Shown here: piece by piece, positions 5,709 to 50,878 of the stretch | Position numbering within the stretch: position 1 is the first letter of the stretch | Layout of the letters: each line of letters starts with the position of its first letter | Origin: a virus | Virus record (IMG/VR): IMGVR_UViG_3300018080_008436 | Span: 58,998-122,997 of that record | Length of the DNA: 64,000 nt | Reading direction: 5' to 3' (one strand) | Translations under genes and position numbers: made by a program | The notes under the pieces: generated by a model | Seen by the model: the letters and a program-made list of their open reading frames with translations, nothing else | Told to the model about the DNA's origin: nothing | Database searches by the model: none

Positions 5709-6215
5709 TCACCATGTCTCCTTTACATCCTTATAGAACACTTTGATGGATTCGATTATTGATTGGAAGAAGATATACATCTTTTCCTTGAACGGCATTG
5801 ACTTAACATGATCTTCAACAGTTCCACTTCCTTCAGGAAGAGCAGAAGGTATTGTTCCTGAAACTTCTGTTGCCTCATCTAACATCTTTCTGTTTAACTC
5901 AGAAGCTTTCTTCAGAACTTTTTTAGGAACTTCAATGTAGAACTGGTGATAAATATTTGCATAAGTAAATCTACTCGAACTGTTTTGATACTTACAATCA
6001 TATCCAGCCTTTCGGATTTCCCTAACAGCTAAGTCTGCAACTTCTTTATTATTTATTTTACTCGATTCGAAATACACAATCAGTTGATTCATGTTGCCTT
6101 CAACGATACCAGCGTTAATATCGTGGGCGAGTTTTTCCAGAACCTGTTGTAGATTCTTTTCATCTTTCTTTGTGATTTCATCGGGACTGGGGCACTTTTT
6201 GATTTTTACAGCCAT
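5709..6215 (-). CDS. hypothetical protein
   Basis: 168-aa ORF. Confidence 0.35.
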   Translation of the reverse strand: MAVKIKKCPSPDEITKKDEKNLQQVLEKLAHDINAGIVEGNMNQLIVYFESSKINNKEVADLAVREIRKAGYDCKYQNSSSRFTYANIYHQFYIEVPKKVLKKASELNRKMLDEATEVSGTIPSALPEGSGTVEDHVKSMPFKEKMYIFFQSIIESIKVFYKDVKETW

Positions 6216-7117
6216 TTCAGTTCCTCTTCCTGAAAATATTTGATTGCCTCTCTTAACCCTTCTTCGAAAGGAGTGAGTTCGAACTTACCTTCTCTGAAAC
6301 GAGAACAAGGTTCGCTGTTTGAGGGTTTTCTATGTTGCCCATCAGGTCTCTCGTTGTCAAAAATTATGTCTCCTGTGAAATCTATGATCTTGGCAATCAT
6401 AAGCGCCACTTCCTTGATGGATATTTCTTTTTCAACAGAAACTATCATAGACTCACAATCATGATCCAATAGATGTAGAGCGTATTGAGCTACGTCCTTT
6501 GAGTAAATAAACTCTCTGAGAGGCGTTCCTGATCCCCAGACAATAAAAGGCTTTCCGTACTTTTTAGCCCTACAGCATTTGCTAATTAATGCAGGTATAA
6601 CATGACACTCATCTAATTGATAGTTATCATGCGGACCATAAATATTACAAGGAATGATTGTAGTGGATTTCAGACCATGCTGTAGCCAATAGGCTTTCAA
6701 CTGAACCATTGCCATTCTCTTTGCATATGCGTAGGGGGCATTGCTCGGATGAGGTGGACCATCAAAAATCTGACCAACATGTAATGGATACTTAACCTTG
6801 TCAGGAAAAATACAGGTTGATGCAAAGTTGATGATCTTCTCAACTTGATACATCTGACAACAATCAATCACATTTGTATTAATTAGAATGTTGTCTCTGT
6901 AAAAGTCTCCACCATATCTCATGTTTGGAGAAATCCCTCCAACCTTGGCGGCACAGTGAATTACATGAGTCGGCTCATAAATCCTGAAGATGGACTCTGC
7001 TTCTTGCAGGTTTCGAAGGTCTCCATGCTGTCTACAGACTTTTATAACGTCTGGATGGTCAATTGCACTACCAACCAGACCTTTACCTCCTGTAATCAAA
7101 ATTCTACGTTCTGGCAT
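6206..7117 (-). CDS. fcl: GDP-L-fucose synthase (GDP-4-keto-6-deoxy-D-mannose epimerase/reductase)
   Basis: The segments RILITGGKGLVGSAI and HCAAKVGGISPNMRYGGDFYRDNILINTNVI match the Fcl/GMER short-chain dehydrogenase family. Confidence 0.8.
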   Translation of the reverse strand: MPERRILITGGKGLVGSAIDHPDVIKVCRQHGDLRNLQEAESIFRIYEPTHVIHCAAKVGGISPNMRYGGDFYRDNILINTNVIDCCQMYQVEKIINFASTCIFPDKVKYPLHVGQIFDGPPHPSNAPYAYAKRMAMVQLKAYWLQHGLKSTTIIPCNIYGPHDNYQLDECHVIPALISKCCRAKKYGKPFIVWGSGTPLREFIYSKDVAQYALHLLDHDCESMIVSVEKEISIKEVALMIAKIIDFTGDIIFDNERPDGQHRKPSNSEPCSRFREGKFELTPFEEGLREAIKYFQEEELKWL

Positions 7118-20300: not shown

Positions 20301-20384
20301 TGTACGCCAGCGAATCCTCGTTCTTATATCAGCGAATCTATCTGACCAAACAAGGAACACCTATACCATTTAGCGATGGGAGAT

Positions 20385-20464: not shown

Positions 20465-20467
20465 AAA

Positions 20468-20927: not shown

Positions 20928-20928
20928 T

Positions 20929-25688: not shown

Positions 25689-25943
25689 GCGTCATCCTTT
25701 GATTATTTGTGATTTCTGATCCTCTTCAACGATGCGATTCCAATACTTCATCATTATTTTATCAACTTTCATTACGTTTGATGAAACATGGATATTAACA
25801 GCCCGTATCTCATCATGAGTACCATGTTCTAAAACATAGCTGAGAAATTTAACGACTTGAGTAAGGGTTTCCTTTTCCGTTAAATCATTATTATCCATAG
25901 CATACCTCCAATATAGCTCAAAACTTGAGATTGTCAAGTCAAA

Positions 25944-31294: not shown

Positions 31295-32677
31295 TTACTT
31301 TTGGGGAGTCGCAACAGGAGTCGCTTCTGGAGTATCGCCGTAGTTGTTTTTGGAGTTGTAGGTTGGGATCTTGTTAATTGGAGTCTTGTCCAACAAGCCC
31401 ATCCCTTCCAACAGCTTCAGATTGATCAGATTGGTTGTCATACCGCCCTGTGATCCGCCTGTAGTACCTCCATTACCGCCGATGGTAACGCCTGGAACTT
31501 TGATATTGGAAAGATGTTCTGCAATTCCGATATCACGTTCTTTGGCAATCTCAGCAAGAATCTTTTCCTGCTCGGTGATAGCGCCAGCTTTCTGAATCTT
31601 TTCCTCTTCAGCCGCCGCCAACTCACGAATTGCTTCAGCATCAAGCTTGGCCGCTTCCAGTTTTAACTGAGCGACATCCACTTCCTGCTGTGCTTCGATC
31701 TTGGCCTTGAGTGCAACCTGCTCAGCTTCCAGAGCCGCTTCTTTCGCAACGGCGACCTTCTGCTGTGCTTCGATCTCAGCCATTTCCTTTTCCTTCTCAG
31801 CCTTAATGACAGCTTCGGCCTTCTCGACATTGGCTTTAGCCTCCATCTCAGCTTTCTCACGCAATCCCTTCTCTTCGACCATCAGGCGCTGTTGAACTTC
31901 CTGTACACGCTCAGCCTTGGACTGCTCTGCCAACAGTGAAGACTTTTTCTTCGCCGCAAACAGTTCGCGAGTCTGTGGATCATACTCAACTCCTGTAATG
32001 GAGAACTGAGTGATCGTAATGCCATACTGCTCCAACGGAGATTCTTTGGCGATCAATGGTACGCCGTTGTCATCCTTGACAATATTGGTGACGTAAACGG
32101 TAATTGCCTTACCGCTTTCATCTGTTTCGTCAACCTGCTGAACCGCTTCCTTACGCATCTGGTAAAGACCATTGTCCAACTGCTCTCGAACAGTCTGGTC
32201 AAACTCCGTCTTACGGGCCGACTGATGTTCGGAGGACTGCATCATTGGGGCGGTATTCTTCAAACAGTTAATAAGGTGGGAACGGCATGCCGACTTAATG
32301 TTATCGGGATTACCGCTGAACTGTTTGTTGAATTCGATACGTTTGGCTTCATCCGTAGGCAACTCAATACGGGCGTAACATGATACGTCTGCCTGACCAC
32401 CATCGTTGAAGGTAATACGAATCGACTCATCTTTGACTCCACCTTCTTCAACTGACTGGGAGAAGTAGTAGTCTTCGAACTTGTTCCATTCCCAGGTAGT
32501 GGCGAAGAAGTTCCAGTAATAACCGCCTCGGTCGATCACGCTCAGATCACCGCCAATCGTCTGCTTGACGACGAACTTGGTGTTTTCGTTGTAACCAAAC
32601 AACTGGGTTAAAATTGTGAGTGAGATGACGGCGACGATTCCTACGAATGCGAGTTTTACTTTTGTTGCGTTTGTCAT
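31295..32677 (-). CDS. SPFH (band-7)/flotillin-like membrane protein
   Basis: N-terminal transmembrane helix, an SPFH core (ITGVEYDPQTRELFAAKK...), then a long Ala/Glu/Lys coiled coil typical of flotillin/YqiK. Confidence 0.7.
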   Translation of the reverse strand: MTNATKVKLAFVGIVAVISLTILTQLFGYNENTKFVVKQTIGGDLSVIDRGGYYWNFFATTWEWNKFEDYYFSQSVEEGGVKDESIRITFNDGGQADVSCYARIELPTDEAKRIEFNKQFSGNPDNIKSACRSHLINCLKNTAPMMQSSEHQSARKTEFDQTVREQLDNGLYQMRKEAVQQVDETDESGKAITVYVTNIVKDDNGVPLIAKESPLEQYGITITQFSITGVEYDPQTRELFAAKKKSSLLAEQSKAERVQEVQQRLMVEEKGLREKAEMEAKANVEKAEAVIKAEKEKEMAEIEAQQKVAVAKEAALEAEQVALKAKIEAQQEVDVAQLKLEAAKLDAEAIRELAAAEEEKIQKAGAITEQEKILAEIAKERDIGIAEHLSNIKVPGVTIGGNGGTTGGSQGGMTTNLINLKLLEGMGLLDKTPINKIPTYNSKNNYGDTPEATPVATPQK

Positions 32678-32717: not shown

Positions 32718-33059
32718 TTACTTTTCTTCAACAGCCTCTTCGGCTTCGTCCAACTCATTCTCAATAGCCGCTTTTGTGGCTACTTCTCTTGAGAAGGACT
32801 TAATCTGATCATTTTCCTCCTGTAGTTTGTTTGTTACCTTTTCGTTTTGTTCGACTCGTTCATCAAGAGCTTCAAAAGCCCTCTTTCCATCATTGCAAAG
32901 ACTCTCTGTGCTCTTCTTGGGATGAGGGGAACAGAGATCATTGGCGAATTGATCAATCGCCTCGCTTGTAAAGATCTTCTTGTAAAGAAGGGTTACAAAT
33001 GCGAGAACGAGAGATACGACTGCAAGGACTGCAATTAGCGTTACGAGTTTGACGATCAT
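32718..33059 (-). CDS. small membrane protein
   Basis: N-terminal transmembrane helix (IVKLVTLIAVLAVVSLVLAFVTLLY). Confidence 0.35.
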   Translation of the reverse strand: MIVKLVTLIAVLAVVSLVLAFVTLLYKKIFTSEAIDQFANDLCSPHPKKSTESLCNDGKRAFEALDERVEQNEKVTNKLQEENDQIKSFSREVATKAAIENELDEAEEAVEEK

Positions 33060-33138
33060 GTTTGATCTCCTGATTAATTAAATTATGAGACTAATATAGA
33101 TCGTCTTTAATGGATGTCAAGCGGTTTTATAGAAAAAT

Positions 33139-34212
33139 CTAGGCTTTATGGCCATTTTTTTCTTTAATAGGGTTGGCCTTCAAAGCTTCATAGTCAGCTT
33201 TATACATGATTTCAACGAGTTCATTGAACTTCACTTTCGGTTCCCATCCCAAAACTTTCTTTGCCTTGGAGTAATCTCCCAAAAGTAGATCCACTTCAGC
33301 AGGTCGATAATACCTTGGATCAATCTGAACTAGTGCATCTCCGCTCTTACTGAAACCAACTTCTTGCTGACCCTCGCCTTCCCATTTCAATGGCATCTCT
33401 GCCAAATCGAAAGCGATATCAACAAATTCCTTAATAGAATGTGTTTCATTTGTTGCTACGACATAATCATCTGGCTTATCCTGTTGCAACATCAACCACA
33501 TTGCTTCAACAAAATCTGGTGCATATCCCCAATCTCTTCTAGAATACATATTGCCAAGATACAAACAATCTTGCATTCCAAGCTTAATAGATGCCACGGC
33601 CCTGGTGATCTTTCTTGTAACGAAAGTTTCTCCTCTTCTAGGAGATTCATGGTTAAAAAGTATCCCGTTGCTTCCATAAATCCCATAGGACTCTCTGTAG
33701 TTCATTGTAATTGAGAACCCAAACTGTTTTGCAACACCATATGGGGATCTTGGATGAAACCTTGTCAACTCAGTTTGTGGACTCTCATAAGGAATACCGA
33801 ATAACTCTGACGAAGACGCTTGATAGAACTTACACTCAGGGCAAAAGGATCTGATCGCTTCCAGTAATCTCAAAACTCCCAATCCCGTTACATCCGCTGT
33901 GTATTCTGGCTTGTCAAATGACACCCTTACATGACTCATTGCCGCAAGGTTATAACACTCGGTTGGCCTTACCTTTTGAACGATTCTATTCAAACTGTTC
34001 GCATCTGATAAATCACCATAATGAAGATGTAAATTTACATGTCTGTCATGAGGGTCTTGATAAATGTGATCGATTCTCTCTGTGTTGAATGAACTGGATC
34101 TTCTTATGACTCCATGCACTTCATATCCCTTATTCAAAAGTAGTTCTGCTAGATATGAACCATCTTGTCCTGTTATCCCTGTTACCAGTGCGATTTTCTT
34201 TGATTTAGCCAT
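33139..34212 (-). CDS. gmd: GDP-mannose 4,6-dehydratase
   Basis: [46 protein letters not shown]...[14 protein letters not shown] is a textbook GMD signature. Confidence 0.9.
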
Positions 34213-34287
34213 TATGAAATTCTCCTATGTTATTGAACGTATTATACATCACAAAACAAAGGATTTACAAATTTTTGATATGAATTA

Positions 34288-34752
34288 ATGAGTGTAACGG
34301 GAGGCTTTGGAATGAAAAAGAAAAAGAACAAAAAAAGTAAATTCTGGTGCATCCTCGGCAATTCATTACTCTATGCCGTAATAGTTATCACATCTATTAT
34401 CGTTTATGACAAAGTGAGGTTCGGGGAAGCTGAAGAACCAGTTGCTGAAGAAACAGCACCAACAATTGAAGAAGCAACAGATCATACAATTGATGAGTTA
34501 GATCTAAAGAAACTTGATCTGAAAGCACTAGTAACCAAAGAACCTGAACCACTTCGCATGAGATATTCTCTTTGCCCTGCTGGATCGACAGTATTCAAAA
34601 TGAACCATGAAACTGGAGAAGTGTACTTCTTCTCTGGAGGGATGTTCCTTCCAATACAGACAATCTCTCATGCCCAGATCTATGGAATCATCCCTCAGTT
34701 AGAGAAGGAATTGAAAGAGAAGCAGGAAGCACTCAAACCTAAGGCTGAGTAA
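34288..34752 (+). CDS. hypothetical membrane-anchored protein
   Basis: Plus-strand ORF filling the gap between gmd and thyX, with an N-terminal transmembrane helix (FWCILGNSLLYAVIVITSIIVY). Confidence 0.4.
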   Translation: MSVTGGFGMKKKKNKKSKFWCILGNSLLYAVIVITSIIVYDKVRFGEAEEPVAEETAPTIEEATDHTIDELDLKKLDLKALVTKEPEPLRMRYSLCPAGSTVFKMNHETGEVYFFSGGMFLPIQTISHAQIYGIIPQLEKELKEKQEALKPKAE

Positions 34753-35515
34753 ACTTACCATCAGGCCCCCTGACGTTGTAATATCTCTTCCCGTCAGGTT
34801 TGGTGCCATAAGTTGCTTCCTCAATAGCCTCAAAACGCTCTATGATACCCCACTTGGCTTCATAGACAGTTGGAACAATGGGTTTGATCAACTGCTTTAA
34901 AGCCTCGGCATATTGAACCATTTCCCACTGAGCGCCCTCATGACTTCTCAGATTGATGAAATGGATCAAGTTGTGCAAATCAACTGTTGCGTAAAATGTA
35001 ACCATCATGTTCTGAGGCAACACTCCCCTGGCTTGCTCTCTGGCAACCCCTTCGTCAAGAAGATTCTGATAAAGCTTGAGGCACCCAATATTGTGCTTGG
35101 CCATAATGCTTTTTATATGCTCTTCGTGATCTTCTCCCTCTCCAAATCCATCTACTGATGCCTGTCTATTGATCTTCGCTTGTCCTCGGATTTTTGGGGG
35201 AACATAGAACTGCAAATCAAATTCTGTGTATCTTCTAGAGATTTCATTGTAAGACCAAGTTCTGTGTCTATGCCACTGTCCTCTAATGAACAAAGGGCAA
35301 TGTACCAAGAAAGTGAACTCGACATGTTCAAGAGGACTCGTATGCTGATTGTTAATTAGATACCGAATCAGCACTCTGTCTTTTTCTTCGATAGCGTCAA
35401 CCCTTTTCCCGAATGAAACCCTTGCGGCATTCACAATCCTGGTCTCGTCCCCCATAAAATCAATCAAACGAACGTACCCCTGTCCACCCAATACTTCAAC
35501 AACTTTAGAATCCAT
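34739..35515 (-). CDS. thyX: flavin-dependent thymidylate synthase ThyX
   Basis: ThyX signature RHRX7S (QWHRHRTWSYNEISRRY), plus SPLEH. Confidence 0.85.
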   Translation of the reverse strand: MDSKVVEVLGGQGYVRLIDFMGDETRIVNAARVSFGKRVDAIEEKDRVLIRYLINNQHTSPLEHVEFTFLVHCPLFIRGQWHRHRTWSYNEISRRYTEFDLQFYVPPKIRGQAKINRQASVDGFGEGEDHEEHIKSIMAKHNIGCLKLYQNLLDEGVAREQARGVLPQNMMVTFYATVDLHNLIHFINLRSHEGAQWEMVQYAEALKQLIKPIVPTVYEAKWGIIERFEAIEEATYGTKPDGKRYYNVRGPDGKFTQP

Positions 35516-36401
35516 AGTCTTCTTCCTCTTTAAATAAGTCTAGCACTTCAATTGGCTCAATAAATTTCTCGAAATGTTCTTTAAAGTCAATAATGTTCTC
35601 AAGTAAATCTTTTCTATCACCCAAAACAATATATGCCACATCAATTCTAGTAGCTATTGTAAAATTAGCCATTCCTTGCTCTGGGTGGTAACCATACGAG
35701 GAAACACTTTGCGAACTGTTCGCGATCAAAACAACATCTGGTTTAGGAATCATACCTTCTGTAAACAGCAACGACTGTGCAACAGCCTTTTGCATTGATG
35801 TCTTCTTTGCATCTTCTCGCAAAACATCCAATGGCCTAACATTATTTGTTGAGAATGTATAGTATTCAGGTTCCCCCTGCATAAAAGTTCTATAAGATAA
35901 TTGCTCATATGTTTCAGCATCTTCCAAATGAAAAGCAACCACTGGATAGTCCTTCATCTCCAAACGGAAAGCGTTTTTATCTGCGGCCCTTTTCATTCTC
36001 TTAACAGCAACCTCATGATACCCTTTCATGCTATCACTGAGCTTCTTCTCAACCAACCTGTCAATAGCTTGTCCAACCATCCTCTCAATACCACCAGAAG
36101 TTTGAAGCATTTCAATGACCCCTTCAATGTGAGGGTGAGAGATCTCTTTTACTTCCTCCCTTTTTTCATGCTTGGCCTTATTGACAGCACAAATAAGATC
36201 TTTTTTGGCCTCAAAAACCTGTTCGGAAATAGCGTCTTGAAGTTCCACTTTAGCTTTGGATAATTCTTGTTGTTTATATTCCTCAACTTCTCTAATAGCT
36301 TTGGCCTTTTCTCTCTCGATGTGATCTTTTACCATTTTGTCAACAAAATCAAACATCTTCTTCCTCGCTCTCATCGTATTCAGAGTCCATGATTTCATCA
36401 T
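35505..36401 (-). CDS. hypothetical protein
   Basis: 298-aa ORF. Confidence 0.4.
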   Translation of the reverse strand: MMKSWTLNTMRARKKMFDFVDKMVKDHIEREKAKAIREVEEYKQQELSKAKVELQDAISEQVFEAKKDLICAVNKAKHEKREEVKEISHPHIEGVIEMLQTSGGIERMVGQAIDRLVEKKLSDSMKGYHEVAVKRMKRAADKNAFRLEMKDYPVVAFHLEDAETYEQLSYRTFMQGEPEYYTFSTNNVRPLDVLREDAKKTSMQKAVAQSLLFTEGMIPKPDVVLIANSSQSVSSYGYHPEQGMANFTIATRIDVAYIVLGDRKDLLENIIDFKEHFEKFIEPIEVLDLFKEEEDYGF

Positions 36402-37152
36402 TGAAACCGCCGATCAGCATCTCTTCCTTCTCACTCAGTTCCTTTTCTTTTTCTTCTGAGCTTTTAGAAAAACCCGAAATGGTGTAGAAAGAATAATTAG
36501 CAACAATTTCAAGATCTGTACTCTTCTGTGACCCTCCCCAACTTTGCCATTTGGAAAATACAGAGTTCTTGATCTCCATAGTCATGAGATCAGCCCCCAT
36601 CTTCCCTCCCAACTTTAAACCACGTTTAATCGCTTCATTACGCAAAGCTCTCCGAACAGAGTCTTTGAAAGTCTCTTTATTGCCACTACCCTGATAGTTT
36701 TCTTTAAGAACAATGCTTGCGACTTTTATAAAAGTGTAGTCATACTTTTCCAACTCTTCTGTAGTTTCCACAAAAATTGGATTGGTCGAAAAACTCTGAG
36801 TTTCCACATACTCATTGAAGCACTTCTTGAATATCTCTGCCAGATCTTGAGACTCACACTCCCTGATGAAATCAGCCTTAAGACGGTCAAGGTTCGCATC
36901 AACAAACTCTTCGAACTCATCACGACAAGTCCTGAACTTTTCCTGAGTAATCCTTGTGTAAGTATCACAATGAGTTTCAAGTGCCTGCTGACTGGACATT
37001 ATCTTTAACTCAATCTCTTCTTCCATCTTCTTGGTGCGTTTCTGGAAGAATTCATCAATTTTTTCATCGAACCAGTTGAACATATTAATTACCTTGTGTT
37101 TGGATGTATCTAGAGATATTGATCTTGTTTTCTTTAGCCCATTCGGAGACAT
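36349..37152 (-). CDS. hypothetical protein with acidic C-terminus
   Basis: 267-aa ORF. Confidence 0.4.
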   Translation of the reverse strand: MSPNGLKKTRSISLDTSKHKVINMFNWFDEKIDEFFQKRTKKMEEEIELKIMSSQQALETHCDTYTRITQEKFRTCRDEFEEFVDANLDRLKADFIRECESQDLAEIFKKCFNEYVETQSFSTNPIFVETTEELEKYDYTFIKVASIVLKENYQGSGNKETFKDSVRRALRNEAIKRGLKLGGKMGADLMTMEIKNSVFSKWQSWGGSQKSTDLEIVANYSFYTISGFSKSSEEKEKELSEKEEMLIGGFNDEIMDSEYDESEEEDV

Positions 37153-38515
37153 ATTTCATCTCTGAACGTTGGATTAGCTGATTACAAGCTCCACGAATCT
37201 GGACTACCGTTCTATTCCCTCGCTTATATTCTATAGTGGCAATAGTTTGGGTAAGTTCATCATCTGTATAAATGCGAAGAGAAAAAATTGAGACCTCGCC
37301 ATTTGCACACTTACGAGCATAGCTACCAACACAATGATGCATATCCTTCCCTTCATCCTTCAAACCTTCGCGAGTAGTAATTTCCACAATCCTACGCTCT
37401 TTGTCGCTATCTCCCTTCTCAAAGATCTTCTTAGAATAGGGTTTGACAGTTGAAGGATTCCAGAAAGGAGGGATGTTGTCTCTACGAACAGTACGACGAG
37501 TGTTGAGTTCTCTATGCCACCCTTCCACTAATGCCAAAAGGTTGTCAGGATTACGACCTTTGAAAGAGAAATCTGGTTGAAGTGGAGGGAGTCGATGATA
37601 TTCCCCTTGAAGGTACTGAGTTCGATCACGAAATTTAATATCCACAACATAATCATAGATTTCTCTATACTTGTCGTTGCTAAGGAATGGATTGTTTGCA
37701 AAGAAGAAGAACATGGTAATCCAAAATTCCTCTCTAACACCAACTGGAATTCCAAGAGACATGATCCCGTTGATTACTCGCTCTTCAAAACCAAGACCCT
37801 TTAACTGTGCCCAACGAAAAGACTCATCCAGAGTGAAAGAATGAGGAGCCGAGTTTAAACAATGAGCTTGCTTCTTGCTTAATGGGATTGGTAAATCCTT
37901 CTGCTTCCGAATGTTCTGGCCCCAACCTACGTTAAGATACCACTTCTTCTGAATCTTGAATAACTTTTTGTTAGTGGCCTTGTTATCCCAGATCTTGTTG
38001 AGGCAGTAAGGGACCTCATAAAGCAAAGTGAGAAACTGTGCCAACTTGTAAACGTTATCTTTTGCAGGAACTTTCGGCTCAGGAACGAAGTCTTCAGGTT
38101 CTTTGATCCAGGTATCCTTACAGGATGCCAAATTCACAAGGATAGTCAAAATCTGAACATTCTTCAAAGGAACGCCCTGAAGATTGTCAAAACCATCAAC
38201 CCCACCACCTTCGTATCTTTCTTCATGATATTGGAGTAAGCGGAATCGTTTGGCAACAGTAATGAGTCTATTCAAAGCACGACACTCTGACTCTGTCAGA
38301 TACTTGTCTAAAATAGCTTCACGAACATATCGAACCTCTGGATGATCATCCATTGTAGGATAAAACCCAAAACAGACAGCCCTAAGCTTCTCGTAAAACA
38401 CATTGACTGGTTTGCGTTTTGGCTTGTTATAAAGCCGAACCTTACGCTCATGTTTGCGAATCTGGGCAATTTCTTGCTTATGTCGTTTGATTTTTTTGTT
38501 GCTATTCTTAGCCAT
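37085..38515 (-). CDS. hypothetical protein, possibly PcfJ-like
   Basis: Basic N-terminus and a C-terminal HHCVGSYARKCANGEVSIFSL motif reminiscent of PcfJ-domain proteins. This assignment is tentative. Confidence 0.35.
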   Translation of the reverse strand: MAKNSNKKIKRHKQEIAQIRKHERKVRLYNKPKRKPVNVFYEKLRAVCFGFYPTMDDHPEVRYVREAILDKYLTESECRALNRLITVAKRFRLLQYHEERYEGGGVDGFDNLQGVPLKNVQILTILVNLASCKDTWIKEPEDFVPEPKVPAKDNVYKLAQFLTLLYEVPYCLNKIWDNKATNKKLFKIQKKWYLNVGWGQNIRKQKDLPIPLSKKQAHCLNSAPHSFTLDESFRWAQLKGLGFEERVINGIMSLGIPVGVREEFWITMFFFFANNPFLSNDKYREIYDYVVDIKFRDRTQYLQGEYHRLPPLQPDFSFKGRNPDNLLALVEGWHRELNTRRTVRRDNIPPFWNPSTVKPYSKKIFEKGDSDKERRIVEITTREGLKDEGKDMHHCVGSYARKCANGEVSIFSLRIYTDDELTQTIATIEYKRGNRTVVQIRGACNQLIQRSEMKYVSEWAKENKINISRYIQTQGN

Positions 38516-38612
38516 ACTCTACCTCTTACTACCTTAAAATAGCTTGGGTACAGGAAAAATCAAGCTCTTTTAGAAGAAATATTTCAGGGATGTATAATAG
38601 TGGAAAATAAAA

Positions 38613-39158
38613 ATGGTTCATTTTAGAATGGAAAAGAAATATATTACAGTATTCTTAACTGGTTTACCCTGTTCTGGCAAGACAACTATTGCAAAACAAT
38701 TCATCAAAAAATGGAATGGCCTCATAACTGATCAGAAGTTTGCCCCAATTCCACTAGATGGAGATCATCTTAGATCTGGCTTAACAAGTCATCTAGGTTT
38801 CTCTCCCGAAGATCGAGCAGAAAATATGAGAATTGTAGGACATCTTGCCCAATTAATTAACGATATGCAAATGAACGTTATTTGCTCATTCGTCTCTCCT
38901 ACCGAAGCTCTACGTCAAAAGGCCCTAGACAGCATTAAAAACCCTCATGTGGTCTATGTAAAATGCTCTGCGGATAAATGCGCAGAAAGAGACGTTAAAG
39001 GTATGTGGAAACTGGCCAAAGAAGGGGAAATAGAAATGTTCACAGGTTACTCTGCTCCTTATGAAGAGCCAAAGGATGTTGATTTGGTTCTTGACACTGA
39101 GAAACTATCTCTGGAAGAATGCGTTGACCTTCTGATGGATTCTATGTTGAAGTTCTAA
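38613..39158 (+). CDS. cysC: adenylyl-sulfate (APS) kinase
   Basis: P-loop GLPCSGKTT; LDGDHLRSGLTSHLGFSPEDRAENMRIVGHLAQL; FVSP; ERDVKGMWKLAKEGEIEMFTGYSAPYEEP. These align closely with CysC. Confidence 0.85.
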   Translation: MVHFRMEKKYITVFLTGLPCSGKTTIAKQFIKKWNGLITDQKFAPIPLDGDHLRSGLTSHLGFSPEDRAENMRIVGHLAQLINDMQMNVICSFVSPTEALRQKALDSIKNPHVVYVKCSADKCAERDVKGMWKLAKEGEIEMFTGYSAPYEEPKDVDLVLDTEKLSLEECVDLLMDSMLKF

Positions 39159-39355
39159 TAAATAGGGGTGCTATCAACTGAAATCCACGTTTTCTTTTCA
39201 TTATCTTCATCTTGATGATAACGAATAGATACACTTCTTTTGATCTTTACGTTATTCCCTTTGATTGGAGTGTCTTTAGGGATATCTTTTAAAGCTTTTA
39301 CGATATCCCCAACCGTCTTGCAATCTTTTGTTGGCTTCCAACATATAGTTCCCAT
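39155..39355 (-). CDS. hypothetical small protein
   Basis: 66-aa ORF. Confidence 0.3.
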   Translation of the reverse strand: MGTICWKPTKDCKTVGDIVKALKDIPKDTPIKGNNVKIKRSVSIRYHQDEDNEKKTWISVDSTPIY

Positions 39356-39365
39356 AATTCACCTC

Positions 39366-40391
39366 CTAGAACGTACCATCTATAATGTTTACAAAATGCT
39401 TTCTAATAAAAGAAGCACATGCGTTATTGATCGTTTTGTTAACTCGTTTTTCTTCACTCTTTTCGAGTTTCTCAAAAATAGTGGATTCATCTTTCAGCAT
39501 ATCTTTTCGAACATCCTGAGCAAAGGCCCCCATGAGTTTTCCGAATTCTTTCTGACTGATCTCTCCAATATGAGACAGAACATTTCTTAGTCTGTTTTCT
39601 GTAATGTATTCGTCAGCAACTTGAGTTACTCTTTGGGCCTCTTCAGAAACCACTACAGGTTTTCTTTCTTTAGGAACTCTTTTCCTTTCTGTGAACTTTT
39701 CATTCTTTGATTTAAGAATGACTCTTGATCCACAAGGGTCACAAATAGAAACCAAAGGCTTGAGGACATTCCCCTCGCAGATGTTACCCTCAATCTCTGG
39801 AAGACCATAATGCTTATAAGTCGGATCTGGATAATCATTAGGATAGTCCAAGCACTCTTCAAATGTTCCAACATGCAAAGCTTTGGCGTAAAGGGTGAAT
39901 CCAGCTTCATCCATTACTTTAACAAAATTATCATAGCTCATAGGAGTGCTCTTCTCTCCCCTAATGTAGATATCAAATGGAAAGAAATCAACGTCTGGAC
40001 AGTACCAAACCTTGTTCTGAACCATCTTTACGCCTTGAACAGGCTCTACATCTGGATGAGGATATCTTCCACCAAACAGCTCCCCATAAATCTGAACAGT
40101 AGTGTCCTCATCCAGATTAAACATGTTAAGGATAATCTCCCTAGCCAAATTGACCCTTACTAGGTAACGATTTCTCACCTTCTGGAAGTTGAAAAAGTTT
40201 TCGTCTTCTGACAGCCAGCTTGTTCTTTTTGAGCACTTGACTCCATTACTATCAGCATACATTGAAAAATTAGCACCATGGATCTTAGTTGTAACGATCC
40301 AGGGATTTGCGGTATAACCACGGGTTACGTAGCTATCAATGGTTTTCTTTCTGTCAGAGTTGTCAATCTCGGTGTACTTCCTGAAATTCAT
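39366..40391 (-). CDS. RNA ligase, T4 Rnl2 family
   Basis: MNFRKYTEIDNS...WIVTTKIHGANFSM carries the KxHG nucleotidyltransferase motif I and is collinear with T4 Rnl2 (MFKKYSSLENH...VAREKIHGTNFSL). Confidence 0.85.
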   Translation of the reverse strand: MNFRKYTEIDNSDRKKTIDSYVTRGYTANPWIVTTKIHGANFSMYADSNGVKCSKRTSWLSEDENFFNFQKVRNRYLVRVNLAREIILNMFNLDEDTTVQIYGELFGGRYPHPDVEPVQGVKMVQNKVWYCPDVDFFPFDIYIRGEKSTPMSYDNFVKVMDEAGFTLYAKALHVGTFEECLDYPNDYPDPTYKHYGLPEIEGNICEGNVLKPLVSICDPCGSRVILKSKNEKFTERKRVPKERKPVVVSEEAQRVTQVADEYITENRLRNVLSHIGEISQKEFGKLMGAFAQDVRKDMLKDESTIFEKLEKSEEKRVNKTINNACASFIRKHFVNIIDGTF

Positions 40392-40461
40392 ATCCCACCC
40401 TCCTTGATAATGTTAGAAACATTATAAAGAGAATGGGGCGGAATTCAAGACAAAAAGAAAA

Positions 40462-40794
40462 TTATTTCATGATGCCCACAATCTTATCCAAACAGCCCCA
40501 TGTGGTAAGAATGGGCTTAAGTCTCCAATAACATTGGATATGCAGATTGGCTCTGCTAGGTAGTTGGTGATCTCTACCAGGAGTAGTAATAAACAAGAAT
40601 GCTACTAAGACATCTAGGTTCTCTGTATGAGGATCAAGCATGGCCAACATCTCATCAATTTCTTCCCATCTCCCAGCATGCATGAGATTGTTAACTATTT
40701 TGTATATAGTGAAGGTAGCTTCATCTTCATCAGTTTCGTCAAGTTTCCTGACATAATTCAACCACTCTTCTTTCTTTGTCGGATCATACTTCAT
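40462..40794 (-). CDS. hypothetical protein
   Basis: 110-aa ORF. Confidence 0.35.
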   Translation of the reverse strand: MKYDPTKKEEWLNYVRKLDETDEDEATFTIYKIVNNLMHAGRWEEIDEMLAMLDPHTENLDVLVAFLFITTPGRDHQLPSRANLHIQCYWRLKPILTTWGCLDKIVGIMK

Positions 40795-41143
40795 CTAATT
40801 CTTCCAGTACGTCATCGAAAGTCCCTATTGACTTTCTTAGTTCTTCTCTGGACTTACCCTCATCTTTAAGAGTACCAGCACTTCTCATCTTCTCAATAGC
40901 ATCATCTATTTGTTGGTCAACCATTTCTTCATAAAACTCACGATCATATTCAAGTTGATCAACAAAGAATTCCCCATTGCAGATTGAGTATGGAACGAGA
41001 ATGAACCAGAATATTGAGAACATAAAGATGTGAAGAAATCTGGGGATTAACTCAACCCTTAGAACCGAATGGTACAGTCTGAACGACAGATAGGAGAAGC
41101 AAAGTATGAATCCTATGAAATAGAATATTATGAAAGCAACCAT
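40784..41143 (-). CDS. hypothetical membrane protein
   Basis: Two transmembrane helices. Confidence 0.35.
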   Translation of the reverse strand: MVAFIIFYFIGFILCFSYLSFRLYHSVLRVELIPRFLHIFMFSIFWFILVPYSICNGEFFVDQLEYDREFYEEMVDQQIDDAIEKMRSAGTLKDEGKSREELRKSIGTFDDVLEELDEV

Positions 41144-41478
41144 TTTCTAGAATTCACAACCTCTTCTTTCATATGTTGAAACACTGACTCAATATCTGAG
41201 GAAACAAACACCTTAACAGTTTCGAATAGGTTGGAACCGAAGTAAACAGTTAAAGGAGACTCTAGGACAGATAGAACATAACGTTCATCTGAGTCACCTT
41301 CATCAACTAAGATGGCAAACCTTGGTATTGGGATACCATGTTGATTCTCCATTACGGTTAAATCAACCATATCACCATCGTCATCTACCGTAAAGGTGAA
41401 TTTTGTTTCTAACTCTTCTGAAAGCAGATGGAGTTCCTCTGTAATCATCCTTCCCCTAACCCCAGTTATTGTGCCCAA
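41128..41478 (-). CDS. hypothetical protein
   Basis: 116-aa ORF. Confidence 0.35.
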
Positions 41479-42403
41479 GTTCTTCCTTAAAGTATTTGAT
41501 CGTATGCTTCAAACCCTCTTCTAAAGGAACCTCAGGACCCCAATCCAATTTCTTTTTTGCCAAATCAATCACAGGTTTCCTTCTAGTTGGGTCATCCTTA
41601 GGAAGTTCCTTAAACACAATCTTAGAATCTGATCCTGTCAACTCTATGATCTTCTCAGCTAATTCAAGAATGGAGTTTTCTGTAGGATTTCCTAGATTGA
41701 CTGGCCCTGTAAAGTCCTGACTGTTCATCATCTTTATCATACCATCAATTAAATCACTTACATAACAGAAACTTCTTGTTTGAGATCCGTACCCATATAT
41801 TGTTATGTCTTCACCTTTCAAAGCTTGAACAATGAAGTTTGAAACAACCCTCCCATCCCCAGGACACATTCTAGGTCCATAAGTGTTGAAGATTCTGATC
41901 ACTTTAATATCTGAGTTGTATTGTCTGTAATAGTCAAAGAAAAGGGTTTCGGCACATCTCTTCCCAATGTCATAACAGCTTCTAGGCCCTATTGGGTTAA
42001 CACAACCCTTGTAAGACTCTGGTTGGGGATGTACTTCAGGATCACCATATACCTCAGAAGTTGATGCCTGAAGTATGGGGATCTTGAGTCTCTTGGCGAT
42101 CCCTAGCATATTGATGGCACCCATCACTGATGTCTTAGTTGTTTGAACTGGATCAAACTGATAGTGAATAGGAGATGCTGGACAGGCCAAGTTGTAAATC
42201 TGATCAACTTCTACATAAAGAGGGAATGTGATGTCATGTCTGATGACCTCGAAGTTTCTCATGTATTGAAAAGGGTAGATGTTTTTCTTCCTACCAGTGT
42301 AGAAATTATCAACACAAATTACTTCGTTGCCTTCTTGCAACAGTCTCTCGCAAAGATGGGAACCCAGGAACCCTGCTCCCCCTGTAACCAAAATTCTTTT
42401 CAT
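41456..42403 (-). CDS. UDP-glucuronate decarboxylase (UDP-xylose synthase)
   Basis: [34 protein letters not shown]...[11 protein letters not shown]...[19 protein letters not shown] is a near-consensus UXS/ArnA-decarboxylase signature. Confidence 0.85.
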
Positions 42404-42445
42404 TGAATTACCCTTAAATATAGATCTTCCCCACCATTATACAAT

Positions 42446-42811
42446 CTATCGTGAGAACCTTTTGATGTAAGGATCAAATTGTTCCCAAGGAATCTCATTG
42501 TGACAATTGAATTCTCCGAAGAAACTTTCTTCTGTTTTCCGATCCCTGTAGAAGCACTCCCATACTTCTCCAATCAATTCAAACTCCATGTAGTTCTGAC
42601 TGTCGTCCAGAGCAAGCATAAACTCATTCTGAACGCCAGAAGGAGCCGCATCCATGTTCAGGTTCGGATAACGCTCATGAAAGGCTTCCCAGAAGCTTAA
42701 AACGATAAGAGAAGCGTCAACCGACAACAACTGCCGATTGACGCAATCCTCAACGTACTCTTCCATGGACTTATGACTTCTTGGTGAATCGTCCATTCTT
42801 TCCTCGTACAT
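42446..42811 (-). CDS. hypothetical protein
   Basis: 121-aa ORF. Confidence 0.35.
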   Translation of the reverse strand: MYEERMDDSPRSHKSMEEYVEDCVNRQLLSVDASLIVLSFWEAFHERYPNLNMDAAPSGVQNEFMLALDDSQNYMEFELIGEVWECFYRDRKTEESFFGEFNCHNEIPWEQFDPYIKRFSR

Positions 42812-43823
42812 TGTGATATTTCTTCCCGCTAGGCTTGTAGCCGAACGACTGAGTGGTTGGGGGAGTCGAAGTCCGTTTGATGAAACGGCCTTTCACATCT
42901 CTTGCAGGAGTTGGCTTGACAGAATCACCAACTGGTGCAACAAATGCATCGTCATTAGCCTGATCATCTGTCTCGGCAACCGTTTCAGCAACCGTTTCAG
43001 CTTCCTTGGCCTTCTCAGCCTTGACATGAACCATTTGTTTATGAACATCCTGGTTGGTGTCAATGTATGACTCTTCGAACGCTTCCTCTTGTTCGCGATT
43101 TGAAGAATCATATTCTGCAATAACCTCATAGCAACAGGCGCGTCCTTTGGTGTTGTTGTAATCGCGAGGAATCGCAACAACATCGCGAGGGTTGATCTTA
43201 ACAATAACAACTCGACTATTGTGCAAACAACCATATTTTGGGAGATAGGTGAGAGAACAGAAATGCAAACCCTTTGAACAGGTCCGATCCCGATCATCAT
43301 CGACCTCATCCCGATCCATATGAACAATTGCGCCAATAGAATGATCCAAGTGAGTCCCGTCAGGAGAAGCATGAATTGACTTCAAATCCATGTTGACCTT
43401 TTTATAGGCCAAGAAACACCCATCGTCTGTGACTGGATTGTTCCCCGTCTCCAAAAAGAGGTAGAGTTCGTCTTTGGCGCTTTGAAGTGGGTTCTTCAGA
43501 ACATTTTCCAGGAAGGCAATGAGTGGCTCAAAAGGATAGCCCTTTTCGCTAAACTTAAGGATGCGGTCAACAAGAACATTGTGAATCTCTTCGCCGTTGT
43601 AGAAGATAGCTCCGTTTTGAAAAACAACTTTCCCATCAGAGCATTTGTTGATTGCTAGGGGGACATTCAGAAATTCTTCGAGTCTATCGTAGTCCTTCCG
43701 GTTCAGCTTTTCCCGAATGGTCTCGTAGTTACGATGGTCAGTGGTTACATTGTAGGGGGTGCCGTTGACGTAAACGGTAACGTCCCCAGAGTTGTGATCA
43801 ATGATGTGGGCTACATGGCTCAT
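42771..43823 (-). CDS. rIIB: rIIB-like protein
   Basis: Collinear with T4 rIIB: VLVDRILKFSEKGYPFEPLIAFLENVLKNP against T4 LVDRILDSMEKGENFEFYFPFLENLLENP. Further matches include DDGCFLAYKKV, CSKGLHFCS, and VKINPRDVVAIPRDYNNTKGRACCYEV against T4 VKVHPRDVVSIPIDYNDAKMRTCQYEV. Confidence 0.85.
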   Translation of the reverse strand: MSHVAHIIDHNSGDVTVYVNGTPYNVTTDHRNYETIREKLNRKDYDRLEEFLNVPLAINKCSDGKVVFQNGAIFYNGEEIHNVLVDRILKFSEKGYPFEPLIAFLENVLKNPLQSAKDELYLFLETGNNPVTDDGCFLAYKKVNMDLKSIHASPDGTHLDHSIGAIVHMDRDEVDDDRDRTCSKGLHFCSLTYLPKYGCLHNSRVVIVKINPRDVVAIPRDYNNTKGRACCYEVIAEYDSSNREQEEAFEESYIDTNQDVHKQMVHVKAEKAKEAETVAETVAETDDQANDDAFVAPVGDSVKPTPARDVKGRFIKRTSTPPTTQSFGYKPSGKKYHNVRGKNGRFTKKS

Positions 43824-47375: not shown

Positions 47376-47482
47376 TTTTAGTACTCCTGTTTTTTAGTAT
47401 TTTCAGTTACTGGTTCTACTGTAGCTCAACTAAGTAGAATGTCAAATCGGTTTAACCGATTTTCTTATACTATTATACAAAT

Positions 47483-49062: not shown

Positions 49063-49845
49063 TTAAATGTCATCAATCGTTGGGGGCGCTTGATGTTTGT
49101 GTTTATTTGCATAATGCATCTTTCTGACAAATGCACCAACAACAGACTTTTCCCATTCGCCTGTTTCTTTGAATCTTCTGATAACAGGTTCCATCTCATC
49201 GTAAGTGTAACCCAATTCTTTTTCGTCAGTCTGCCCATCCCAAAGTCCAGCAGACGGGACTCTGTCAATATGACGTTCTTCAATGTCGCCTCTCTCAACA
49301 AACCATTCAAGCATACCATACACTTCAGATTTGAAAAGATGACCGATGGGGAAGAAGTCTGCGAGAGCATCCCCACCCTTGGTATCATAACCGATAAAAT
49401 CCTCCGAAAGGTTCCCCGTACCCATGACTCGAACTCTTTGGTTGCTGTAATCCCTGGCGAACTTTTCTGACAGAGTACAACAATAAGTGTAAAGAGCGAC
49501 CATTCGCATACGACTTCTCATATTGCCAGAGTTCAATTCTGAAATTTTGAGATGTCCAAATTCATCTTCAAGAGAATCACAAGTTTCCCTGATGAAAATC
49601 ATTTCGCCCTTTACTCCAAGATTACTAGCGATATCCAATGACCTTGCATTGAACTTGCTTCCACTCAAATCTCGGTTGTCATAAGGCATATGCAAAACGT
49701 AAACATTCTCTGCCCCAAGAGCTTCTTTGCACAGAAGCGTTACCAGAAGAGAGTCAACTCCCCCACTTAAACCAATTACGGCCTTATCAGTGAATTTCGC
49801 AATTGCATCTGTAATTCTTTCAATTTCTCCTGGGATTGATTCCAT
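49063..49845 (-). CDS. nadE: NH3-dependent NAD+ synthetase
   Basis: PP-loop GLSGGVDS, and GNLSEDFIGYDTKGGDALADFFPIGHLFKSEVYGM matching the NadE GYFTKYGDGxxDxxPLxxLxKxxV block. Confidence 0.8.
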   Translation of the reverse strand: MESIPGEIERITDAIAKFTDKAVIGLSGGVDSLLVTLLCKEALGAENVYVLHMPYDNRDLSGSKFNARSLDIASNLGVKGEMIFIRETCDSLEDEFGHLKISELNSGNMRSRMRMVALYTYCCTLSEKFARDYSNQRVRVMGTGNLSEDFIGYDTKGGDALADFFPIGHLFKSEVYGMLEWFVERGDIEERHIDRVPSAGLWDGQTDEKELGYTYDEMEPVIRRFKETGEWEKSVVGAFVRKMHYANKHKHQAPPTIDDI

Positions 49846-50800: not shown

Positions 50801-50878
50801 TGGTCGGGGTGAGACGATTCGAACGTCCGACTTCTTGCTCCCAAAGCAAGCGCTCTAACCAGGCTGAGCTACACCCCG
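50801..50878 (-). tRNA. tRNA-Pro (UGG)
   Basis: The minus-strand sequence CGGGGTG-TA-GCTC-AGCCTGGTTA-GAGC-G-CTTGC-TTTGGGA-GCAAG-AAGTC-GGACG-TTCGAAT-CGTCT-CACCCCG-A-CCA forms a canonical cloverleaf. Confidence 0.85.

Follow-up and report, generated by a model that had tools for sequence, protein, structure and literature searches.

Enzymes for GDP-fucose, UDP-xylose and PAPS synthesis in a very large phage, and a possible link to a sulfated glycan

The window analyzed here is a 64,000-nucleotide stretch, about 12%, of a 523,871-bp (~524 kb) phage contig. It encodes four enzymes that, by family assignment, convert GDP-mannose to GDP-L-fucose (GMD and Fcl), UDP-glucuronate to UDP-xylose (UXS) and APS to PAPS (APS kinase), a gene content already known in phages. 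Sequence comparisons indicate vertical inheritance of the APS kinase and GMD, both part of a gene block conserved in a clade of related large phages, and the neighborhoods of homologous kinases favor the use of PAPS for glycan sulfation over its use in sulfur assimilation. We put forward the sulfated-glycan link as a hypothesis and give an even chance to the reading that the three donors are raised for a glycan with fucose and xylose that is probably sulfated and likely an envelope polysaccharide of the infected cell.

The four enzymes and their surroundings

All four ORFs were found exactly where the initial annotation had placed them, on the same strands and with the identities it proposed, and their catalytic residues are intact. 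GMD (33139..34212, minus strand, 357 aa) matches Pfam GDP_Man_Dehyd (E = 3e-147), the NCBIfam equivalog TIGR01472 (545 bits versus a cut-off of 415) and the solved bacterial GMDs, including E. coli 1db3 (467-468 bits), and it keeps the catalytic Ser-Ser-Glu and Tyr-x3-Lys. The GDP-L-fucose synthase Fcl (GMER; 6206..7117, minus strand, 303 aa) is closest in type to the enzymes of humans and Naegleria. Its best solved matches are all GDP-L-fucose synthases, with 248 bits and 43% identity to human 4b8w and 169 bits to the E. coli enzyme, and the Ser-x-Cys, Tyr-x3-Lys and His motifs are all kept. The previously claimed complete route from GDP-mannose to GDP-fucose is present. UXS, the UDP-glucuronate decarboxylase or UDP-xylose synthase (41456..42403, minus strand, 315 aa), aligns along its whole length with human UXS1 at 410 bits and 59% identity, versus 147 bits for the next family; a ten-residue motif, YDxGKR and QTR are kept.

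The APS (adenylyl-sulfate) kinase (38613..39158, plus strand) has 181 aa, or 176 aa if translation starts at the ATG at 38628. It belongs to a subfamily with the P-loop GLPCSGKTT and scores 150.8 bits against TIGR00455, versus a cut-off of 138.7. Its Walker A, LDGD, LGFSPEDRxEN, SFVSP and FTG motifs align with those of human PAPSS1 and other solved APS kinases, and 16 homologues show no variation at the catalytic and APS-binding positions. By this model and these motifs it is a true APS kinase, as had been proposed for the PAPS-forming enzyme. Homologues occur in only 7 of 50,697 phage records, one being the huge phage LR756500.1. A consensus scan of the 97-bp divergent gap upstream of the kinase gave a candidate sigma-70-type promoter on the plus strand (38569..38598; TTTAGA, 18-nt spacer, TATAAT), a pattern match alone at 10 of 12 positions. 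On the other side, a 66-aa ORF (39155-39355) and the RNA ligase 2 gene rnl2 (39366..40391, minus strand; Pfam RNA_ligase and T4_Rnl2_C) are convergent with the kinase, the gene ends sharing 4 nt.

The phage nature of the contig is confirmed by RIIA (43833-46034) and RIIB (42771-43823), both on the minus strand and matching PHROGs with E = 2e-132 and 2e-67, respectively. Sigma-70 and peptide deformylase (PDF) are further bacteriophage markers, and the contig also carries sigma factors, tRNAs and a CRISPR array. Among the window's nucleotide-metabolism genes are those for NT5C, a nucleoside hydrolase, a Nudix protein and the thymidylate synthase ThyX, which lies between GMD and the kinase (34739..35515, minus strand; Pfam Thy1, E = 1e-53). 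No structural module was visible in the window.

Gene order and gene histories

In related large phages the clade block runs RIIA-RIIB...Rnl2-APS kinase-Thy...GMD, with the kinase on the opposite strand. In relatives L008/L009, L010/L049 and L048 the kinase is the only gene in opposite orientation, it adjoins Rnl2 and/or Thy, and GMD lies 2.4-10 kb away; the slot and the orientation are common to four related phage lineages. Rnl2 occupies the same position in L010, L048, L049 and L050, and ThyA stands at the ThyX position in L008, L009, L010 and L048. The kinase is 59-62% identical to its clade relatives, and the backbone ranges from 48 to 74% (RIIA 48-50%, RIIB 49-50%, Rnl2 53-60%, PDF 64-66%, GMD 70% to that of the syntenic relative L048, SPFH 74%). 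The nearest cellular relatives of the kinase, from Omnitrophota, are only 50% identical. For all four genes GC, GC3 and CAI fall within an absolute z of 1.2 relative to 55 window genes.

The plus-strand kinase had been taken initially as a sign of separate acquisition. That proposal is unsupported, because the identity of the kinase fits that of the backbone and its composition does not stand out from the rest of the phage, and the shared slot and orientation speak against it as well. Comparative sequence evidence marks the kinase instead as an old, conserved gene of this phage clade. Its co-conservation with GMD may be plain backbone synteny, since unrelated genes separate the two in the clade.

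The other two genes have different histories. Fcl is patchy within the clade: its nearest homologues are 58-60% identical, one of them in the related phage L208, and it is missing from relatives L006 and L007. UXS, flanked by RIIB and a conserved 106-aa ORF, is specific to this phage lineage, where it replaces the NAD kinase found in that slot in L008, L010, L048 and L049. The four genes are spread over 36 kb (at 6.2, 33, 38.6 and 41.5 kb) on both strands and are interleaved with Thy, Rnl2, PcfJ-like and RII genes, with PDF and NAD synthase also among the surrounding genes. They are not one cassette, and this dispersal gives no indication that they are co-regulated. The earlier term "toolkit" thus overstated their unity.

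Neighborhoods of homologous kinases and known systems

Genes near homologous kinases were counted in two censuses, some contigs of which may be cellular. Among 150 dereplicated neighbors from 36 IMG/VR loci there were 7 Sulfotransfer_3, 6 Sulfotransfer_1, 6 GT1, 5 GMD-type SDR and 4 GT2 proteins; PAPS reductase and ATP sulfurylase were outside the 25 most frequent families. The 150 neighbors from 50 metagenome loci included 11 SDR, 7 Sulfotransfer_3 and 5 GT2 proteins versus 3 each of ATP-sulfurylase and PAPS_reduct. In loci L041 and L044 the gene directly downstream of the kinase encodes a sulfotransferase, and a custom-built profile gave more such cases. In L104, GMD is 55 bp upstream of the kinase. 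A 435,804-bp viral contig (L036, IMGVR_UViG_3300028840_001395) has Fcl (7987-8979), GMD (8976-10013) and APS kinase (10001-10501) overlapping end to start on one strand. Its GMD and kinase are 63% and 40% identical to those of the window. This huge phage is not a close relative, since it has no other backbone gene in common with the window within 20 kb. Its Fcl is of the E. coli type (373 bits), unlike the human-type Fcl of the window, which likewise indicates that the combination arose independently. We read PAPS as a probable sulfation donor rather than a cysteine intermediate because relatives of the kinase adjoin mainly sulfotransferases, glycosyltransferases and sugar dehydratases, and because the kinase once directly follows fcl-gmd in another huge phage.

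The same two GDP-fucose enzymes are encoded by the T4-like cyanophages P-SSM2, S-SKS1, S-CAM7, S-SCSM1 and S-SRM01, whose GMD and Fcl are 60-61% and 32-34% identical to ours. In these phages and in 68 of the 80 best IMG/VR GMD loci an Fcl-like gene is in the same locus, beside gmd where inspected, whereas in the window 26 kb separate the two genes and the Fcl resembles the human type instead. An APS kinase occurs in none of these 80 loci; ordinary phage gmd-fcl pairs do not need PAPS. Cyanophage gmd-fcl genes are usually described as auxiliary genes for the cell surface or LPS; we know of no experimentally established target.

Chen et al., in a 2020 preprint (10.1101/2020.02.13.942896), and an intertidal survey of large DNA viruses (PMC13172472) have reported the kinase gene, cysC, among the auxiliary genes of large and huge phages; both file it under sulfur metabolism or assimilation. 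Those phages, of 150-530 kb and from sediments or freshwater, likewise have a stand-alone APS kinase. Contrary to that filing, the slot and orientation of the window kinase and the neighbors of its homologues (sulfotransferases, glycosyltransferases and GMD/Fcl) point to sulfation. In cellular sulfated-glycan loci, such as rhizobial NodPQ/NodH and the sulfated exopolysaccharide clusters of cyanobacteria, APS kinase feeds PAPS to carbohydrate sulfotransferases, and the same combination is seen around homologous kinases on metagenome contigs; the window, by contrast, has the kinase without ATP sulfurylase or sulfotransferase. Among eukaryotic viruses, the chlorovirus PBCV-1 encodes GMD and GMER and has fucose and xylose in its capsid glycan, and chloroviruses and mimiviruses make the sugar nucleotides for their capsid or fibril glycans with pathways of their own. 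A virus-encoded GDP-fucose route is thus common to them and to our phage, but these viruses have their own glycosyltransferases and, to our knowledge, no PAPS synthesis or sulfation.

Possible use of the donors

Pfam matches, from our own scans or precomputed for the source contig, covered all called genes of the window and 10 kb beyond either end (84 kb of the 523,871 bp). No glycosyltransferase or sulfotransferase was detected in these 84 kb, so their reported absence from the window holds and extends to the flanks; nor were cysH, cysDN, sat (ATP sulfurylase), manC or ugd. The custom sulfotransferase profile gave no match in the window (best E = 0.22). The missing transferases count against the sulfated-glycan reading, and so do the scatter of the four genes, the lack of APS kinases in the 80 GMD loci and the filing of cysC under sulfur metabolism.

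These results bear on several other readings. The genes could be unrelated auxiliary metabolic genes, the kinase aiding assimilatory sulfate reduction (PAPS to sulfite by host CysH, then to cysteine for phage proteins) and GMD/Fcl and UXS separately topping up host LPS or capsule precursors, with no common product and no sulfation. We regard this as rather unlikely, even though the genes are dispersed with differing histories, cysC is listed under assimilatory sulfate reduction or sulfur metabolism in both studies (10.1101/2020.02.13.942896; PMC13172472), ATP sulfurylase and PAPS_reduct do occur near some homologous kinases, and sulfotransferases were detected neither in the window nor, with a limited custom profile, in LR756500.1, which has both UXS and APS kinase. 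Against it are the lack of cysH, cysDN and sat in the 84 kb, the excess of sulfotransferases and glycan genes over assimilation genes near this kinase subfamily, the low rank of assimilation genes in the viral set, and the overlapping fcl-gmd-kinase run of L036. In addition, many bacteria assimilate sulfate via APS reductase, and there an APS kinase would divert APS from assimilation. Less probable still is a use of the donors on proteins of the phage particle itself, which would be glycosylated and possibly also sulfated. PBCV-1 provides a precedent, as do mimiviruses and mycobacteriophages with glycosylated capsids and tails (virion glycosylation in the latter is cited in PMC12619734). The enzymes are also conserved across a clade of very large phages, which suggests a function belonging to the phage itself and not to the glycan type of a particular host. 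However, their neighbors are early-type and nucleotide-metabolism genes (RIIA/B, Thy, PDF, NAD synthase) and not recognizable structural genes, and the 84 kb held no phage glycosyltransferase.

It is highly improbable that the sugar donors go into glycosylated bases of a hypermodified phage DNA, or that the kinase acts on nucleic acid ends with Rnl2. The surrounding ThyX, NT5C, nucleoside hydrolase and Nudix genes, the adjacency of kinase and Rnl2 in the window, L010, L048 and L049, and the existence of virus-encoded DNA glycosyltransferases (referenced in PMC12619734) would fit such roles. Yet the window has no hydroxymethylase-type ThyA homologue or DNA glycosyltransferase, its ThyX is a standard Thy1-family match, all residues with which true APS kinases bind APS and catalyze the reaction are invariant across the 16 kinase homologues, and Rnl2 is not adjacent in L008 and L009. 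We know of no fucosyl or xylosyl DNA modification. Least credible is that the four genes are decaying, inactive relics: Fcl does fall under the curated NCBIfam cut-off (219 versus 500), but all four ORFs are full length with every examined catalytic motif present, a point on which the initial annotation had made its proposal depend. Their codon usage matches that of the phage, the kinase and GMD retain 59-70% identity between lineages and do not vary at active-site positions, and identical proteins occur in several independent assemblies.

The glycan-related role proposed at the outset, with sulfation included, is therefore the reading best supported by the neighborhoods of homologous kinases and the L036 run, although the single toolkit and the separate acquisition of the kinase that went with it are not. 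During infection the phage would draw on host GDP-mannose, UDP-glucuronate and APS, and pools of GDP-fucose, UDP-xylose and PAPS would rise. Host transferases, or ones from other parts of the phage genome, could then use these donors to make a new or altered glycan with fucose and xylose, probably sulfated. Its most likely target would be a cell-envelope polysaccharide of the infected cell, where it may serve to block superinfection or to maintain the envelope during a long infection.

Identity of the four enzymes

The four open reading frames were recovered with exactly the boundaries given in the initial annotation, and the predicted enzyme families are those it had named. GMD (33139-34212, minus strand) matched Pfam GDP_Man_Dehyd with E = 3e-147 and passed TIGR01472 (EC 4.2.1.47) with a whole-protein score of 545.4 bits, against a curated equivalog cut-off of 415; solved bacterial GMDs matched it at 467-468 bits. 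In the alignment to 7kf3 the Rossmann GxxGxxG motif, the Ser-Ser-Glu motif (Ser replacing the Thr of Ser/Thr-x-Glu) and Tyr-x3-Lys (SPYGVAK) were all kept, and the roles of these residues are presumed to be those of E. coli GMD.

For Fcl (6206-7117, minus strand), the top 18 matches among solved proteins were all GDP-L-fucose synthases (E = 1e-72 to 2e-27), the best being human GFUS with 248 bits and 43% identity. The motifs STC (Ser-x-Cys), YAYAK (Tyr-x3-Lys) and GPHDN (His) are conserved; we take them to correspond to the catalytic Ser, Tyr and Lys and the epimerisation Cys and His of E. coli GFS (S107, C109, Y136, K140 and H179). No NCBIfam family matched the whole protein better than equivalog NF047922, which gave 219.3 bits against a cut-off of 500. 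That model appears to have been built on E. coli-type sequences, and the window Fcl is nearer to the human and Naegleria type. Because the score misses this narrow cut-off, we label the protein only a probable GDP-fucose synthase (EC 1.1.1.271) of the human/Naegleria-like type. The GMD partner that supplies its substrate is encoded in the same genome.

UXS (41456-42403, minus strand) aligned over its full length with human UXS1 at 59% identity and 410 bits; the next family reached 147 bits, ArnA 75-78 and UAXS 72. It reached the cut-off of no NCBIfam family, and no stand-alone UXS model was among the matches. The catalytic motifs, including YDxGKR and QTR (GSQTRSF), align with the human ones, so that Thr-x-Glu, Tyr-x3-Lys and the conserved Arg are kept, presumably in the roles usual for UDP-glucuronate decarboxylase / UDP-xylose synthase (EC 4.1.1.35).

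The APS kinase (38613-39158, plus strand) scored 150.8 bits with TIGR00455 (EC 2.7.1.25), for which the cut-off is 138.7. Walker A, LDGD, LGFSPEDRxEN, SFVSP and FTG are all present in an alignment to human PAPSS1, and Walker A, LDGD and the APS-binding residues (Arg, Phe, Arg, Asn, SFxSP, FTG) are invariant in 16 kinase homologues. The P-loop of the window kinase is the variant GLPCSGKT, and an alignment of phage-type APS kinases shows a subfamily with GLPCSGKTT at this place rather than the usual GLSG(A/S)GK(S/T). In the same alignment the cysteines C20, C118 and C123 never vary and C91 and C170 seldom do, a pattern that hints at a possible redox or metal site. Homologues were present in only 7 of 50,697 phage records. 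Among 185,579 species genomes the best cellular relatives reached only 50% identity; these were from Omnitrophota, followed by Bathyarchaeia, Thermoplasmata and others, including archaeal MAGs. The Omnitrophota proteins (292-306 aa, about 50% identity) have a cytidylyltransferase-like domain (PF01467) fused to the kinase. A scan of IMG/VR with the single protein found no close relative, and the alignment-based scan was required. A pattern match to a sigma-70-like promoter lies just upstream of the gene. The kinase was also considered as a polynucleotide kinase partner of RNA ligase 2 (Rnl2); this was rejected on the invariant APS-binding residues and on two related phage loci, L008 and L009, in which the kinase does not adjoin Rnl2.

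Genome context and inheritance of the enzyme genes

Identical proteins place the window, in reverse complement, at roughly 195.3-259.3 kb of a 523,871-bp contig (ena:ERZ27256796:k141_941235), of which a JGI/ENA twin of roughly 524.7 kb exists; it represents about 12% of a huge-phage genome. These proteins are also encoded on three further contigs of 0.2-1 Mb. That the source is a large bacteriophage is shown by RIIA, RIIB, two sigma-70-like factors, S49 and M50 peptidases, peptide deformylase (PDF), NAD synthase, a PARP-like protein and five tRNAs. Against 50,697 phage records, megablast of 33000-42500 gave no match and RIIA is at most 34% identical to known phages, so the phage has no annotated close relative.

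The closest kinase homologues (57-65% identity) are on contigs of related large phages, where the kinase again stands alone on the opposite strand, within the same block and with its 3' end overlapping a convergent gene. Contigs related to that of the window include Ga0452214_000021 (136 kb) and HAWL17-1 scaffold_49 (128 kb). In L008 and L009 the order is RIIA, RIIB, NAD kinase and, after intervening genes, the plus-strand APS kinase and ThyA. L010 and L049 share the beginning of this block, followed at some distance by Rnl2, the plus-strand APS kinase, a Cas3-like and a Cas12-like gene and ThyA, with GMD further on. In L048 the order is RIIB and NAD kinase, then Rnl2, the plus-strand APS kinase and ThyA, and then, each at a distance, GMD, SPFH and a 1300-aa protein. 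Kinase identities to these relatives are 59-62%, inside the range of the backbone proteins (RIIA 48-50%, RIIB 49-50%, Rnl2 53-60%, PDF 64-66%, GMD 70%, SPFH 74%). None of the four enzyme genes departs by more than 1.2 standard deviations from 55 window genes in GC, GC3 or codon adaptation. Since identities, synteny and composition match the phage backbone and cellular relatives reach only 50%, the kinase and GMD are old, vertically inherited genes of this phage clade. The initial annotation had taken the plus-strand position of the kinase as a hint of separate acquisition. This is not supported, as the opposite-strand slot is conserved in relatives and the composition is typical of the phage; recent horizontal acquisition was rejected on composition and synteny. 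Among the window genes, GC is highest (0.484, z = 2.9) in that for the SPFH/Band-7 protein (31295-32677, 460 aa). Its L048 counterpart nevertheless shares 74% identity, so this bias reflects protein-linked composition and not recent import.

The other two genes are distributed differently. UXS and a 121-aa ORF stand where NAD kinase is found in all relatives, with RIIB on one side and a conserved 106-aa ORF on the other. UXS is lineage-specific cargo; its close homologues are rarer among phage records than those of GMD and Fcl. GMD homologues occur in 238 phage records and Fcl homologues in 115, mainly of cyanophages and huge phages. Fcl is patchy within the clade, because the relatives L006 and L007 lack it at the corresponding place and a third, L208, has a 60% identical copy in a different slot of the same region. 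Two ORFs overlapping fcl (7104-7835, 243 aa; 5709-6215, 168 aa) were considered as hidden transferases and rejected as backbone genes, being kept in the fcl-less L006 and L007; neither gave a Pfam, PHROG or PDB signal.

Several other features of the region were recorded. A CRISPR array extends from 62417 to 64000 and past the window end, with at least 23 copies of a 36-nt repeat, GTCACA(A/T)TT(A/G)GCTCAAGTTTTTCTTGAGCCTGTACC, at a period of about 72 nt. It abuts genes for a 1119-aa protein with a weak Cas12f1-like_TNB match and an 820-aa DEAD/Cas3-like_C_2 helicase (2050-7868 of locus L005, just beyond the window). In the related phage L010 this pair recurs, as proteins of 887 and 778 aa encoded directly beside the APS kinase. 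This looks like phage-borne CRISPR-Cas with an unusual Cas12-like and Cas3-like pairing. The PARP-like protein (58468-59793, 441 aa) has a eukaryote-style arrangement of WGR, PARP regulatory and PARP catalytic domains. Its region also holds NAD synthase (49063-49845) and a weak phosphoribosyltransferase match (9572-9988 of locus L290), and relatives have NAD kinase; NAD+ metabolism seems to be a major investment of the clade. A 71-aa IF-1/eIF-1A-like protein (PF01176; 3555-3770) is the most conserved gene relative to L006 (86% identity). Relatives also have PTH2 and Thg1; the clade thus carries translation-related cargo.

Five tRNA genes, at 19156-21017 and 50801-50878, specify Gly-GCC, two Gly-UCC, Met and Pro; the Met tRNA (89 nt) and one of the two for Gly-UCC (87 nt) are unusually long. 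Adjoining the tRNAs is a 235-aa ORF (21078-21785) with an HTH-like N-terminus that may be a homing endonuclease. Intergenic motifs with ATGTCAA in them recur as the repeat families D5 and D6 (414-444, 4981-5011 and 54844-54874; 25914-25954, 47422-47462 and 51249-51289), and may be phage promoter or regulatory elements. A 190-aa ORF that is missing in L006 (8691-9263) has a motif resembling a PD-(D/E)xK nuclease (…GDDGDLV…IDVKAS…). The plus-strand 188-aa ORF at 50014-50580 is Ser-rich, of low complexity and uncalled on the source contig; it is probably not a gene.

Transferases and the neighbourhoods of homologous kinases

Window ORFs of at least 170 aa were scanned with Pfam, and precomputed Pfam matches covered every called gene in the window and in the 10 kb flanking it on each side. 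No Pfam match in these 84 kb was to a glycosyltransferase, sulfotransferase, PAPS reductase, ATP sulfurylase, ManC or Ugd. The assimilatory set (cysH PAPS reductase, cysDN and sat) was likewise absent from the window and from 10 kb on either side. A sulfotransferase profile built from seven viral examples, which recovers at least 11 further sulfotransferases near other APS kinases, found nothing in the window or flanks (best E = 0.22). Glycosyltransferase seed searches of the same region, outside which lie about 440 kb of the genome, were also negative. The earlier statement that the window lacks a recognisable glycosyltransferase or sulfotransferase thus extends to 84 kb by Pfam, profile and seed searches. 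Precursors and all transfer steps depend on genes outside these 84 kb, whether those of the host or of other parts of the phage genome.

Individual candidates were also inspected. Two ORFs between ThyX and PcfJ (283 and 244 aa; 35505-36356 and 36349-37083) were rejected as transferases, being coiled-coil-like with acidic tails and no nucleotide-binding motifs. They have similar starts (MFDFVDKM..., MFNWFDEK...), long charged helical stretches and acidic C-termini; they match no family, their BLAST similarity to each other is not significant, and they are absent from relatives at that position. None of the other unknown ORFs of at least 170 aa was transferase-like. The huge phage LR756500.1 (462 kb, GC 24%) encodes a UXS and an APS kinase with 58% and 43% identity to the window proteins. 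It gave no sulfotransferase with a profile of limited sensitivity, no glycosyltransferase seed match and no GMD or Fcl, and the outcome was the same when read-through of TAG or TGA was allowed.

The alignment of phage-type kinases retrieved 36 IMG/VR loci and 80 metagenome loci, some of whose contigs may be cellular. From the IMG/VR loci, 150 dereplicated neighbours of at least 170 aa lying within 3.5 kb of the kinase were scanned with Pfam. The commonest families were Sulfotransfer_3 (7), Sulfotransfer_1 (6), GT1 families (6), GMD-type SDRs (5) and GT2 (4), with PAPS reductase and ATP sulfurylase outside the top 25 families. Among 150 neighbours from 50 of the metagenome loci there were 11 SDRs, 7 Sulfotransfer_3, 5 GT2, 3 ATP sulfurylases and 3 PAPS_reduct proteins. 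In L041 and L044 the next gene downstream of the kinase encodes a sulfotransferase, and sulfotransferases also accompany the kinase in L032, L045, L055, L115, L125 and others.

The kinase is also found beside GDP-fucose genes. The strongest case is a 435,804-bp viral contig (L036, IMGVR_UViG_3300028840_001395) with an overlapping, co-directional run of Fcl, GMD and APS kinase, and in L104 GMD is 55 bp upstream of the kinase. The Fcl of L036 is of the E. coli type (373 bits to 1bsv) and that of the window phage of the human type; since the types differ, the trio was put together independently in two huge phages. Of the 80 best viral gmd loci, 68 had an Fcl-like gene and none had the kinase, and in the phage clade studied here unrelated genes separate GMD from the kinase.

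Proposed role in glycan sulfation

Judged by their sequences, the phage enzymes turn GDP-mannose into GDP-fucose, UDP-glucuronate into UDP-xylose and APS into PAPS. In the most likely mechanism these activated donors would feed the making or altering of a glycan that contains fucose and xylose and is probably sulfated, and the most likely target would be the envelope polysaccharide of the infected cell. More generally, in a phage clade with genomes of roughly 0.13-0.5 Mb, a vertically inherited PAPS kinase might work together with GDP-fucose synthesis, and here also UDP-xylose synthesis, towards a sulfated glycan rich in fucose and xylose, on the cell or on the virion. This wider reading is a tentative proposal, possible though on balance unlikely.

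Other explanations would account for the same genes. They may be auxiliary genes unrelated to each other, with the kinase serving cysteine synthesis. Phage sugar-nucleotide and cysC genes commonly appear in lists of auxiliary metabolic genes, with cysC counted under sulfur cycling. Two papers describing cysC from large phages class it with sulfur metabolism or assimilatory sulfate reduction (10.1101/2020.02.13.942896; PMC13172472). Near homologous kinases, however, assimilation genes are rare compared with sulfotransferases (3 of 150 neighbours each in the metagenome set, and outside the top 25 families in the IMG/VR set). The sugar nucleotides could instead serve glycosylation of the virion or modification of nucleic acid. 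That the genes are dead, with catalytic residues lost, had been named in the initial annotation as an outcome that would count against it; the catalytic motifs examined are intact in all four enzymes and none is a relic.

All four are known kinds of phage genes, and the gene content is ordinary for large phages. What is new is the opposite-strand slot of the kinase, conserved in the clade, and its subfamily signature, with the P-loop GLPCSGKTT and several invariant cysteines. Also new is the link of the kinase to sulfotransferases and GDP-fucose genes, both statistical and at the level of operons, which supports, but does not prove, virus-directed sulfation of a glycan.

If the glycan-sulfation proposal is true, this would be the first such pathway attributed to a prokaryotic virus. 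The "cysC" of large phages would then be a gene of surface chemistry and not of sulfur assimilation, and sulfur-cycle readings of it would have to be revised. Huge phages would then control both the charge of a surface polysaccharide and its composition, with a bearing on superinfection exclusion, on grazing and adsorption, and on where the sulfated polysaccharides of sediments and waters come from.
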